Shown here piece after piece: positions 13,627 to 50,535 of a stretch of 64,000 bases of DNA (position 1 is the stretch's first letter; the number at the start of each line of letters is the position of its first letter). Made by a program: the position numbers and the translations under genes. Source of the stretch: Eledone cirrhosa (lineage: Eukaryota). Location: positions 339,202,001-339,266,000 of the forward strand of contig OZ024740.1 in the NCBI GenBank assembly GCA_964016885.1, given 5' to 3'. Under the pieces are notes generated by a model, which worked only from the letters and a program-made list of their open reading frames with translations, searched no databases and had not been told where the DNA came from.

Positions 13627-14265
13627 ATAAGCTTGAAACTAGTACAGCATTCCTTTGTCAGTGTTGAACAAACGAGCAACGATGGTTGCTGGACACTATG
13701 GCTTAATACGGGATGTTTGTTTACAAACACACTGAGCATTATAATAAATGTTCGGTGAATCCATACGTACATATATATGTGTGTGCATGTATGTATGTAT
13801 ATATATATACATACTACTGTACATCTGTATACATATATGTATGTGCGTGTACATACTTATATTTAAGTAACAGCCGTACTAAGAGTGGGAAATGAAATTT
13901 CGTTTCATTTTTTCCGTTTATCGTTTTCGGTGCACCTGGCCGATTAACCCACTCGATATGCAAATTGGGATACTCAGCCGTTAATATGCATAAGGTAAGT
14001 ATATACGTTCACAATCTGGCGGAAGGTATACGTTGTTGACGATAGCTAATAAACTTGAAACTAGTACAACGTTCCTTTGTCAGTGTTGAACAAACAAGCA
14101 ACGATGGTTGCTGGACACTACGGCTTAATACAGGATGTTTGTTTACAAACACACGGAGCATTATAATAAATGTTCGGTGAATCCATATATGTGTGCATGT
14201 ATGTGTATATATATACATACTACTGTACGTCTGAATACATATATGTATGTACGTGTACATACTTA
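13627..14265 (+). mobile_element. older HHR-bearing tandem element (family A, ~422-bp unit, ~1.5 copies)
   Basis: cttgaaactagtaca recurs at 13632 and 14054; homologous to the 474-bp unit at 37835-39164. Confidence 0.75.
14030..14072 (+). ncRNA. degenerate minimal hammerhead ribozyme (family A)
   Basis: ACGTTG-TTGACGA-TAGCTAATAAACTT-GAAA-CTAG-TA-CAACGT. Stem I covaries relative to the young copies; C3U core change. Confidence 0.6.
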
Positions 14266-14485
14266 TTTATATATATATTTATAGTATTAAGGATACTATT
14301 TATGGTTATGTATATACTAAAACCTTTTATAGTTATATATATTTTAAACCCTAAATAGTGAAAGACAGTAATTTATTACTATCTTATTACCAGTAAGATA
14401 AATAACTCAATGTAACAACATCAGTTGTTTTACAGAGCAGTTATATAGAAATTACATGAATCAAAGTTCTGTTTAAATCATTTAT

Positions 14486-14534
14486 TTGCTTACAATTGTT
14501 TCTTCCAAACCGTGGTTTGGTGTCTTCGGAGCAA
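14486..14534 (-). ncRNA. type-I hammerhead ribozyme fold (family B, left arm)
   Basis: Reverse complement of the 15574-15622 motif. Confidence 0.65.
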
Positions 14535-15573
14535 TTATTCAGTGATTTTTTACATACTTGGCCTCCTTTTCAACACAAGAGACATATAGAAACATATGTA
14601 TATATTGACCCACAGTGGGTTGACATCCATTATAATAATACAGCATGGCAATTTACATACAAAGATTACAGTCATATTAAAGGACAAAATTAAAGTTAAA
14701 ATTAAAATTAAAATAAAACATTGGCAGTTTACGAAGATAAAGCAAGAGGAAAGGTTGGAGTAGCCAGTGTATGCAACAGTCACGTGTGTCCTATTTATAC
14801 AAGATTATAGTGCGGCAGATTGTTAAATGTAAAACAAGCAGTCAAAGCAGGCAATCAAGAGCATCATGGGGGCTGTACTGGTAAAGCATTTTTCGCACAC
14901 ACCTGTACGATATAGAAGCCCGTGTGTAGAGAAACACCAAAAATATCAAAAATATTACAAATGAGAAGCAAAACAGCACCACTGTCCTCGCACACACCAC
15001 CACTCTCACAATCCAGGAAACGCAATTTATAGACTACATGTCCATCACACAATCCACGATGATTAAACGTTGTGAGAGTGGTGGTGTGTGCGAGGACAGT
15101 GGTGCTGTTTTGCTTTTCATTTGTAATATTTTTGATATTTTTGGTGTTTCTCTACACACGGTCTTCTATATCGTACAGGTGTGTGTGAAAAATGCTTTAC
15201 CAGTACAGCCCCCATGATGCTCTTGATTGCCTGCTTTGACTGCTTGTTTTACATGTAACAACCTGCCGCACTATAACCTTGTATAAATAGGACACGTGTG
15301 CATGTCTCACGTGTGACTGTTGCATACACTGGCTACTCCGAACTTTCCTCTTGCTTTATCTTCGTAAACTGCCAATGTTTTATTTTAATTTTAATTTTAA
15401 TTTTAATTTTAACTTTCATTTTGTCCTTTAATATGACTGTAATCTTTGTATGTAAATTGCCATGCTGTATTATTATAATGGATGTCAACCCACTGTGGGT
15501 CAATATATACATATGTTTCTATATGTCTCTTGTGTTGAAAAGGAGGTCAAGTATGTAAAAAATCACTGAATAA

Positions 15574-15622
15574 TTGCTCCGAAGACACCAAACCTCGGTT
15601 TGGAAGAAACAATTGTAAGCAA
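15574..15622 (+). ncRNA. type-I hammerhead ribozyme fold (family B, right arm)
   Basis: TTGCT-CCGAAGA-CA-CCAAACC-TC-GGTTTGG-AA-GAAA-CAATTG-TA-AGCAA; palindromic stem III ACAATTGT; U4C core variant. Confidence 0.65.
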
Positions 15623-47445: not shown

Positions 47446-47559
47446 TATATTTATATATATTTATATATATTTTATATTTATATATATTTATTTATATATA
47501 TTTATATTTATTCATATTTATATATATTTATATATATTTATTTATATATATTTATATAT

Positions 47560-50297
47560 AACTGATGCAGAAATACATATACCGAAATATACTGTATTTC
47601 GTTTGGACAAGAAGGAGAGAACTTATGGTGGGGTTGCTCTGTATATCCGTGAAGATGTTACACCAATTGTACTGTTGACACATTCAAACTCAGTCTGTGA
47701 CACACTGATAGTACATATGAAGCAACTAAAGACAGTAATATGTGTCTCATATCGGCCACCTGATGCCCCCAGTCATGAGGGTAAATTTGAGGATAGCCTC
47801 TGTAGGATAGAAGAGGTCCATGATAAACTGGACCAGGGTCTCAACATTCTACTGCTGGGAGTCTTCAACCTGCCAAAGGTCAAATGGCCTGAGGGCCACC
47901 TCCTCCCTGGAATGATTTCAATAGAACAGAGACAGATGGAATCCCTGCTGGCCCTCACACACAGGCTGTTCATGGAACAAGCAGTACTCCTCCTAACAAG
48001 AGGCGAAAATGTCCTGGACCTCTGTTTTACAAACAATGAAGTGCTCATCCACAATGTAAAGGTGACGCCAACAATTTTCTTGGATCATAACTTAGTAGAA
48101 GTAATGATATCTTGTCCGAGAGAACCAACAGAGACACAACCATCAAGAATCACCGGGACGTTATCCAGCCTTAACTTCTACAAGGCTAACTGGAAAAAGA
48201 TTAAGAGAGAAATCTGGAAGCAAATATGGAGCGAAAACACCGCCACACAAGACACCAACACACAATTTCAACACTTCATGACAATGCTACACACTATATG
48301 CAAAAAGTTTGTCCCAGAGAAAAAGGCAAACAGACACAAAAATCTTATTGCCAGAAATAGGAAAATCCATATGAGACGTAGAACCAGCTGAATGCACAAG
48401 AAAACAAAAACAAGAAGGAATCCTATTTGAAACGAGCACTACTTGACACTGAGATTGTACTCAAACTTTCTCATGAAAATGAGAGGGAAAAGAAAGAAAG
48501 CAGGGCCATAGAAAATATTAAAACAAACCCTAAGGCCTTCTTTAAATTTTCAAAAGAAACTGCTTCAGTACACTGCAAGATTGGGCCACTCTTCCATACA
48601 GACGGTTCATTAACCGAAAATCCCCAAGAGATATGTGAAATACTGAACGAACAGTACAAAAGTGTGTTCTCATGTCCACTGAGGCACATGCAAATAACAA
48701 AGCCAGAGGAGTTCTTTGATGCCACAATACTACATGAAGAAATGGCAACCATCAACCACATAGACATAATGGAGGAACATGTGGTATACACCATAGATGA
48801 AATTAGAACAGACTCAGCTGCTGGACCTGATGGATTCCCAGCAGTCCTCTTAAAAACATGTAAGCAGGCCTTAGCAACTCCACTGAAGATGCTCTTCAGA
48901 AACTCCTTGGCTAGCGGTATACTACCCAGGGAGCTGAAAGAAGGCACAATATGCCCTATCCATAAAGGAGATAGCAGAGCGGAGGCCAAAATCTATAGGC
49001 CAGTCTCCCTGACGTCGCATATCAGTAAGGTCATGGAGCGAGTCATCAGAAAGAAACTGATCACTTTCCTCAAGGAAAATGACCGCCTGACTAGCACGCA
49101 GCATGGCGTAACTGGACTCGGCATAACTGGAAAAGTAGGTGAGTGGCTGCATAACTTCTTAAAGGACAGAAGCCAGACAGTCGCAGCAAACGGGGCCCTC
49201 TCAAAGGAAACATCAATAACAAGTGGGGTGCCCCAAGGCACAGTCCTGGGACCACTACTGTTTTTGGTGGCTCTCTCCGACATGCCTCTGTAGTACATAC
49301 AACAACATCCCTCACTAGCTATGCTGATGACACTAAGGTAGCACAGGCAATCAAAAATCCAGCTGACGCTGCCCTTTTACAACAAGATCTGGATGCCATA
49401 TACAAATGGGCGGAAGAAAACAACATGCAGTTTAATGCTGGCAAATTCCAAGCCCTACAATACAAACCTGCAAACACAAATATAGTACAACACAGTTACA
49501 CAGGACCAGGAGGGACCGATATCCCCGTGTCAAAATTGATACGAGACCTGGGTATAGACATGAGCGATGATGCATCTTTTTCCTCACACATCAGAAAGTG
49601 GTGACAATGTGCAGAGGTCTCGCTAGCTGGATCTTGAGGACTTTCCGGACAAGAGACCGAGACACCATGTTGACACTATGGAGGACATTTGTCCTAAGCC
49701 GCCTGGACTATTGCTCCCAGTTGTGGTCACCCATAGTGTCAAACTAACCACGGAGCTTGAGGCAATCCAGCAAAGCTACTCCAAGAGGATTGCCACGATG
49801 AAGGAGATAAGCTACTGGGAGAGGCTAAAAGAACTGAATCTCTACTCCTTGCAAGAAGACGGGAGAGATACGCAGTGATCTACATGTGGAAAATCCTGGA
49901 GGGACTAGAACCAAACTTTGGCATTGGGAGCTGGACCAACCTTCGAACAGGACGTCACTGTGTGGAGCCACTGTCTTCCACATCTAGAATAAGGAGCAGA
50001 TATTACAATAGCCTGGGATTCAAGGGCCCTCAACTCTTCAACAGGCTGCCGAGGGATCTGAGAGGTCTGCATGGTGTGGAGGTGGATGTCTTCAAGAAAC
50101 ATCTCGACACCTTGCTATCCAGGATCCCGGATGAGCCCACAACAAGGCACGAGGGAAACCTAAGAGCAGCAGCAACAAACTCCCTCTTACACCAGTGGCC
50201 AACCAATACAGGCTGGAGATAAAATGTGTAGCAACAAGGGCGGTGCCCCAGTATGATCTCAGCCGGATGGCTGGAACAGGTAAAAGAGTAAAAGAGT
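47560..50297 (+). mobile_element. CR1/L2-group LINE ORF2 pseudogene (APE endonuclease part + RT)
   Basis: YRPP, LDLCF, DH; GPDG, YRPVSLTS, GVPQGTVLGP, YADD (~49320); internal deletion after QHG; (AAAAGAGT) tail. Confidence 0.88.
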
Positions 50298-50423
50298 AAT
50301 ATATATTTATATATATATATATATATATATATATATATATATATAACAATAAATTAACGGAGCCACAGAATTTCGCTATTTCCTGTCAATAATGTGCTCG
50401 AAGAAAAGGAAACCTGAGCTCTT

Positions 50424-50535
50424 TAAAATACAATATGTTGAAAAGGTAACACACTAGAGAGAGATAGTGCACCTGTTTTATTGATGGCACACTATCTCTC
50501 TCTAGTGTGTTACCTTTTCAACATATTGTATTTTA
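50424..50535. repeat. 46-bp perfect inverted repeat in a TA-flanked insert
   Basis: 50424-50469 vs 50490-50535. Confidence 0.9.

Follow-up and report, generated by a model that had tools for sequence, protein, structure and literature searches.

The stretch of DNA described here (henceforth referred to as the window) comprises 64,000 nucleotides of the 3.0 Gb genome of Eledone cirrhosa, positions 339202001-339266000 of contig OZ024740.1 (C1). It is crowded with degenerate (TA)n arrays that host Penelope-like elements (PLEs) and short units carrying hammerhead ribozymes, and our subject is how these units, some of which we identify below as retrozymes, came to be inserted there. TA runs of at least 10 nt cover 30% of positions 13627-50535, compared with 4.1% of 120 kb of arbitrary genome (twelve arbitrarily placed 10-kb stretches, L162-L173; examined loci are cited by L numbers). 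Between the arrays lie pieces of long interspersed elements (LINEs), tRNA-derived short interspersed elements (SINEs), PLEs and short inserts. An earlier note on this DNA had proposed a community in which autonomous PLEs and ribozyme-bearing non-coding inserts share (TA)n as their target, and both the setting and the community, which is present genome-wide, were borne out. That note gave no coordinates for its insert families A to F, and we assigned the letters by guess from their anatomy.

The coding PLEs are of two types. PLE1 and PLE2, with ORFs (open reading frames) inside the window, have a CX4CxxC linker, a CCHH-type core and, at the C-terminus, a GIY-YIG domain, and are classified by linker and CCHH motifs as Neptune/Nematis-type. 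Inserts B, D and E had been listed among the non-coding families, but proved to be 3' ends of coding PLEs of another type; because other genomic copies carry ORFs upstream, with reverse transcriptase (RT) and GIY-YIG domains in the long copies of B and D (L107, L113, L114), we rejected all three as retrozymes. Three other coding families have their 3' ends represented here: H3 by E, H4 by a hairpin at 19.3 kb and H5 by a fold at 63.1 kb. A family G has an intact ORF elsewhere on C1. All six families (B, D, H3, H4, H5 and G) possess a CxCX5C linker together with a C-terminal GIY-YIG domain. By pattern in H3, H4 and H5 and by eye in B and G, the CCHH motif is absent and CxxC and CxH are found around conserved E and N residues. 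DKG is changed to DKT in B, D and G (that region of H3, H4 and H5 lay outside view), and the same three carry RWR where the Hydra clade has RWK. By linker and motifs, the six families fit the Hydra clade of Craig et al. 2021 (PMC8557442). The single RT/GIY-YIG machinery postulated earlier is thus not supported, the ORFs of the window being of Neptune/Nematis type and B, D, E, H4, H5 and G of Hydra type.

What remains of the non-coding inserts are A, A', C and F, and it is to these four that the description as parasitic ribozyme RNAs could still apply; about half of the inserts are ordinary 5'-truncated PLE ends. Copy numbers were estimated by pattern searches of the genome, each with a reversed-pattern control, which count motifs and not insertions. 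The matches numbered 10,784 (A), 9,643 (A', exact 33-mer), 259 (C) and 2,492 (F, one mismatch allowed), and the controls had none. Among the coding families, D gave 929 (one mismatch allowed) and B 84, again with 0 in each control, and G gave 30,777, mostly tiny inverted ends. The non-coding units occur in tandem, C in arrays of up to about 21 units, A' as a trimer (L198) and F as a unit at L227 and as a triple spaced 543 bp, and upstream read-through in all four enters the unit's own tail. Once circularised, their longest ATG-initiated ORFs measure 76 (A), 68 (A'), 43 (C) and 64 (F) amino acids. The GC content of the window segments of A, C and F is 0.33-0.42. Folding of the circular units gave z-scores, relative to 25 shuffles, of -7.4 for A, -8.6 for A', -2.9 for C and -2.1 for F, those of A and A' being inflated by a TA-like tract. 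The hammerhead core is intact in the commonest variants of all four, and helix I displays a compensatory change from G-U to U-G between A and A'. Judged by their sequences, A, A', C and F are non-LTR (long terminal repeat) retrozymes as these are defined.

A type I hammerhead descriptor produced eight matches in the window at a score of at least 22 and none in each of 12 local dinucleotide shuffles; a looser scan and inspection by eye supplied the others (see the table). An Rfam scan is uninformative for such minimal hammerheads, none appearing among the best 150 of 210 matches, which were mostly microRNA models placed on hairpins and TA tracts. The claim that every insert contains a hammerhead was right for A, B, C, D and E, which have folds or cores, with the reservations that the B core is of the U4C type and that both hammerheads of the window copy of A' are damaged; the window copy of F has none. 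Hammerhead cores were also seen, as claimed, in the pseudo-LTRs (pLTRs) of the coding PLEs of the window, in PLE2 by descriptor and in PLE1 by eye. Of the Hydra-type families, D, H3 and H4 have intact cores, B has U4C in almost every copy (no CTGA among the 11 printed variants, which span all 37 copies), H5 has mostly U4A and G has no recognisable core. These altered or unrecognisable cores did not stop the spread of B, H5 and G; the intact cores of the non-coding units would fit selection for cleavage or circle formation. The hammerhead of A consists of CUGAUGA-U, a helix II of 4 bp with a 4-nt loop, U-GAAA and a palindromic helix III, and because this last helix is short and palindromic, it probably acts as a dimer, following the model of PMC4209133. 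The arbitrary genome sample contained 20 hammerhead-like matches and all examined loci together 32 clusters; in the whole genome the number of such motifs may run to some hundreds of thousands.

Two further observations concern non-coding units outside the window. A family K (L177:300-2800, L129, L164) is formed by a tandem hammerhead unit of about 530-560 bp in which no ORF was seen and which is without the tail stem-loop described below; it is a probable further retrozyme. A relative of C, 72-75% identical, was found at L071:874-1077 and L177:1760-1884.

The insertions of A, A', C and F are constrained at their ends. Of 173 distinct 3' ends, 143 fall on either of two fixed sites, separated by about 55-90 nt, which yield tailed and tail-less ends, and 141 have a TA run within 12 nt, against a background of 1.6%. 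When two copies lie on opposite strands within 2 kb they are divergent in 43 cases and convergent in one (hand count, with 100 places listed per search), and for B and D within 7 kb the figures are 25 and one among the matches listed. Of the 60 inverted insertions found for these four units, 20 could not be classified because one of their ends fell outside both sites; 37 of the other 40 combined one tailed with one tail-less end. The same one-tail rule was followed by 32 of 35 inverted insertions of the coding families, a count that includes three mis-scored 'tail + tail' cases of D that are tandem read-through; for PLE1 and PLE2 the figure is 8 of 8. Within the window, the inverted segments reported for A, B, C and the coding PLEs were all seen, and F and the 19.3-kb hairpin have them too. 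TA adjoins 23 of 34 ends of D (three of the rest being tandem read-through) and 19 of 24 tail-less ends of B, the tallies leaving out the tailed ends of B and of PLE1 and PLE2, for which the queries did not reach the real end of the tail. An inverted 5' copy and a one-sided tail are described traits of PLEs (PMC8557442); the four non-coding units insert with the footprint of PLEs. A fold-back origin of the inverted arm was rejected, since the longer of the two arms is frequently the one without a tail (L125, L153, L158) and each arm can hold sequence absent from the other (L102).

The tails of the Hydra-type families share a stem-loop, RCTC-stem-loop-stem-TH-GAGY, beginning, at the tail-less end, no more than 25 nt beyond the anchor. 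Under the strict rule it is present in 10 of 12 tails of B, 8 of 8 of D, 3 of 3 of H3, 1 of 2 of H4, 7 of 9 of H5 and the single tail of G, and in the retrozymes in 4 of 7 tails of F and 3 of 14 of C, where a looser pattern matches 50 tails; the rate in shuffles is at most 0.4%. Both GCTC/GAGC and ACTC/GAGT versions of the stem exist, i.e. a compensatory change. In D, G and F, tandem read-through reveals a second stem-loop beyond the tailed end, at a distance of about 10 nt or less, and in C a shortened one. The motif can be recognised by eye in published Hydra consensi from coral and sea cucumber, at the 3' end of Hydra-2_Amil and at the 5' start of Hydra-1_Ajap, and partially in Hydra-1_Crog; by eye it is not visible in the part shown of Hydra-1_Obim.

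Which PLE serves the retrozymes can be approached from their junctions and signals. Several insertions are composites, joining A to H3 (L123, L126/L174), to G (L022, L139) or to an H4-like arm (L160), and C to H5 (L068/L177, L078/L178) or to A (L071/L179). Among 66 distinct non-self 5' junctions of the units, seven are thus with Hydra-type families (H3 twice, H5 twice, G twice, H4-like once), compared with none with PLE1 or PLE2. In layout the A hammerhead agrees with those given for Hydra elements in File S2 of PMC8557442 and not with that of PLE1 and PLE2. Hammerheads, tail motif and composite partners of the retrozymes all point to Hydra-type enzymes and not to the neighbouring PLE. That the units are instead moved by the Neptune/Nematis-type PLEs of the window, or by any PLE without specificity, we consider unlikely; PLE1 and PLE2 share the TA target and the one-tail inversion, and A, which has no Hydra stem-loop, is nearer to them than to the Hydra families in its hammerhead-to-end distance (about 200-260 nt) and its tail (59 nt), but this explanation has to face the lack of PLE1 and PLE2 composites and of the stem-loop of C and F in the tails of PLE1 (0 of 4) and PLE2 (0 of 5) under the strict rule.

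The junctions bear as well on the origin of the units. A, C and F might be solo pseudo-LTRs or internal deletion derivatives of unsampled coding PLEs that were locally amplified into tandems, as proposed for the retrozymes of Xenopus, where pLTR homology was given for 24 of 57 families (Li et al., bioRxiv 10.64898/2026.07.22.740005). B, D and E proved to be exactly such PLE ends, and the Hydra-type motifs in the tails of C and F and the Hydra-type hammerhead of A suggest descent from them. Yet the units run upstream into their own tail, none of the 66 junctions recurs with an ORF at one position, and BLAST (word 7) of the units against the sampled PLE library returned nothing for A, A' and C and weak AT-rich matches for F (E 4e-4 and 0.016). 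Dispersed multimers, moreover, terminate at the fixed sites, and the units therefore move as units. We hold this origin to be quite improbable.

We regard it as likely that PLE RT/GIY-YIG proteins of at least two clades built up this locus by repeated insertion into TA microsatellites, the retrozymes having been copied in trans by proteins of the Hydra type. The PLE protein would nick both strands of the (TA)n target, and cDNA synthesis would begin within the RNA at two places, one for each target strand; joined head-to-head, the two cDNAs would give one tailed and one tail-less end. Retrozyme RNAs would enter the same process in trans, those of C and F being recognised through the RCTC..TH-GAGY stem-loop immediately 3' of both start sites. 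The copying of multimeric or circular RNA, perhaps generated by the hammerheads, would account for arrays that reach about 21 units. We infer that each stem-loop would position one RT start. The wider proposal, for and against which we see equal weight, is that the stem-loop is a clade-wide RNA signal setting the start of Hydra-type RT, with one copy per site, that the tail is the distance between the two copies, and that the unrelated C and F kept or acquired the pair for copying in trans, A using another pair of hairpins. Two other hairpins with 7-nt loops are found by eye at the matching places in A.

Several observations weigh against these readings. The stem-loop is absent under the strict rule from the tails of A (0 of 25) and A' (0 of 7), and A has no second copy past its tailed end; B and H3 have one in degenerate form, and one read-through past the tail of the Neptune-type PLE2 matches a loosened form of the motif. 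The composites would fit template switching within one event, but they are only suggestive, since deletion between neighbours in a shared array looks alike, and of the four PLE-retrozyme composites with both ends seen, only three combine a tailed with a tail-less end. A coding master of A, C or F could lie outside the sampled loci, long arrays can arise by unequal crossover, and the loci used for the footprint were the first or best listed, mostly on C1, and not a random draw. Finally, the 3' ends of all six tRNA-derived SINEs of the window run into TA. Because of this the TA target alone proves little, and because TA adjacency is not exclusive to PLEs and retrozymes the footprint argument rests on the two-site and one-tail rules. 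A TA-rich genome (4.1% cover), such SINE ends and the TA-like tract inside A would also suit satellite-like DNA repeats, or passengers of other retroelements, whose TA link reflects the abundance of the microsatellite or its growth at repeat ends. We take this to be very improbable indeed, as it leaves unexplained the two fixed ends, the 43:1 divergent inversions, the one-tail rule in 37 of 40, the intact cores and the compensatory change between A and A'.

Features of the window and of related loci. Positions are those of the window unless a locus is named; a dot stands for features not placed on a single strand.
Feature	Position	Strand	Description
A' retrozyme	13625..14266	+	430-bp unit, 1.5 units, tail-less end; both hammerheads damaged
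B	14273..15666	.	coding Hydra-type PLE, 3' end, inverted; left arm (minus) with tail, right arm without; U4C hammerheads; tail stem-loop starts 14438 (minus)
(TA)n array	15661..22288	.	degenerate; largest of those hosting insertions
H4	19290..19523	.	hairpin and tail; 3' end of coding Hydra-type family (19.3-kb hairpin)
C retrozyme	22285..23064	.	522-bp unit; tail-less minus arm with hammerhead core 22572; inverted tailed plus arm; tail stem-loops 22802 (minus), 22998 (plus)
A retrozyme	23203..24179	.	inverted insertion; minus arm 23578-23851 with tail, plus arm 23847-24179 without; left end repeated at 23203-23381
PLE1	28765..33338	.	coding Neptune/Nematis-type, head-to-head; RT ORF 29707-31452 (minus); RT-thumb and GIY-YIG ORF 31460-32812 (plus); only left arm tailed; hammerhead-like cores 29058 (minus), 33090
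A retrozyme array	37684..39165	.	inverted arm 37684-37833 without tail; 474-bp unit in 2.8 identical copies up to the tailed site; three hammerhead folds, all intact
PLE2	40239..40520	+	tailed 3' end; hammerhead without C3
PLE2	41273..42256	.	decayed Neptune/Nematis-type GIY-YIG end and 3' untranslated region (UTR); hammerhead 42060-42102; short inverted tail piece
E	42653..42815	+	coding Hydra-type family H3, 3' end; hammerhead at 42717-42787
D	43047..43656	+	tailed 3' end of coding Hydra-type PLE; hammerhead core 43472, tail stem-loop 43568
PLE1, second copy	46291..47445	+	5'-truncated; hammerhead-like core 47193
F retrozyme	50341..50535	.	remnant of 545-bp unit; minus arm with tail, plus arm without; window copy lacks hammerhead; tail stem-loop 50419 (minus)
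H5	63094-63170; also L161		3' end of coding Hydra-type family; hammerhead fold, U4A in most copies printed
G	L253 = C1:11226000-11232400		intact 786-aa Hydra-type PLE ORF
tRNA-derived SINE copies	34083, 35561, 44606, 50590, 54130, 63169		3' ends run into (ATG)n, then TA
Hammerhead folds in A (four)	23861-23903, 37862-37906, 38336-38380, 38810-38854		descriptor score at least 22
Hammerhead folds in B (two)	14537-14483; 15571-15625	minus; 	descriptor score at least 22
Hammerhead fold in PLE2	42060-42102		descriptor score at least 22
Hammerhead fold at 3' end of H5	63094-63154		descriptor score at least 22
Hammerhead folds in C and E	C 22577-22502; E 42717-42787	C minus	looser scan
Hammerhead cores in D and PLE1	D 43472; PLE1 33090, 47193, 29058	29058 minus	read by eye

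Other repeats share the arrays with these elements. The LINE pieces of the window have RT and endonuclease domains by Pfam, and we take them to be RTE-like and CR1-like. Two RTE-like copies, nested or adjacent on the minus strand at 24291-28328, encode RT and a PHD-like cysteine domain and terminate in (ATC)n next to TA, and a decayed CR1-like copy (endonuclease and RT) lies within a TA array at 47429-50288. A block of SINE, TA and LINE 3' end is duplicated nearly identically at 34082-35118 and 35557-36614. A short insert in TA at 41096-41215 has its match in the 3' UTR of yet another family of Hydra type (L119), another TA-embedded insert at 46098-46239 was given no family, and neither was a further self-inverted segment beside a TA run at 54681-54942. 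Upstream in L178 there is an opposite-strand PLE ORF, presumably Penelope/Poseidon-like by its motifs, and possibly a third clade in TA arrays.

Mobilisation of retrozymes by PLEs has been proposed before, from their co-occurrence and from pLTR homology (Cervera and de la Pena 2020, PMC7229834; Li, Clavereau and Pollet 2026, bioRxiv 10.64898/2026.07.22.740005). A, A', C and F resemble the animal non-LTR retrozymes of these accounts in their tandem non-coding units, a type I hammerhead per unit, a GC content below 50% and PLEs alongside. Three of the four units exceed the 150-450 bp range of PMC7229834, and all fall within the 51-972 bp of the bioRxiv study. Unlike the published pLTR-linked retrozymes, they have no detectable homology to the sampled pLTRs. 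Cleavage and circles were shown for the published retrozymes (one of nine tested dimers cleaved in the bioRxiv study), whereas the units described here are known from sequence alone. A two-site tail, head-to-head inversion, a (TA)n footprint or a shared cis motif are not reported in the available text of either account.

The coding families, in turn, share with the Hydra-clade PLEs of PMC8557442 the C-terminal GIY-YIG, DKT (read in B, D and G), CxCX5C, the absence of CCHH where checked, in D, H3 and H4 an intact hammerhead near the 3' end, and the (TA)n target, together with the inverted 5' copy and one-sided tail of PLEs generally. They differ in having RWR and not RWK, in being longer (3.1 to about 4.5 kb), in their tails (about 85-160 nt versus 30-40), in the altered or unrecognisable cores of B, H5 and G, and in hammerheads unlike that of Hydra-1_Obim. 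The available text of that paper does not mention the tail stem-loop, though it is visible in two of its supplementary consensi. For the Poseidon PLE of Anolis (Frangieh et al. 2024, PMC11167929), in vitro work showed two internal RT start sites bracketing the tail and the cutting and extension of both target strands, and hammerhead mutants still inserted, in line with the spread of B, H5 and G. This element is from another clade and has an AC-rich stem-loop, and no trans-mobilised RNA was assayed in the available account. Non-autonomous Chlamys elements of Chlamydomonas such as MRC1 (PMC8557442) are, like the retrozymes here, non-coding head-to-tail multimers, and are moved by PLEs, as is probable for the latter; they differ in that their 3' end sequence resembles that of their autonomous partners and that most are without hammerheads and have (CA)n or (C)n as target. 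The words 'hammerhead' and 'ribozyme' do not occur in the available text of the Octopus vulgaris repeat annotation (PMC13282606), and the openly searchable literature (titles and abstracts, outside subscription journals, Dfam, Repbase and preprint supplements) yielded no account of these families, of a two-site footprint of retrozymes or of the tail stem-loop. The system is thus partly new, namely the retrozyme families with a clear PLE footprint and a candidate cis signal, the rest being ordinary truncated PLE ends.

The mover of animal retrozymes, and the RNA signal by which they are recognised, have hitherto been approached through co-occurrence and pseudo-LTR similarity. Here there is a PLE footprint on retrozymes that can be counted, and the hammerheads of these units number more than 20,000 in this genome. 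It also follows that hammerhead counts in such genomes mix truncated PLE ends with true retrozymes. If true, the stem-loop reading would name both the enzyme and the cis signal of animal retrozyme mobility and would explain the PLE tail. The intact 786-residue Hydra-type ORF of family G and a short motif that can be mutated make trans-mobilisation and the two-start-site origin testable in an existing in vitro format.

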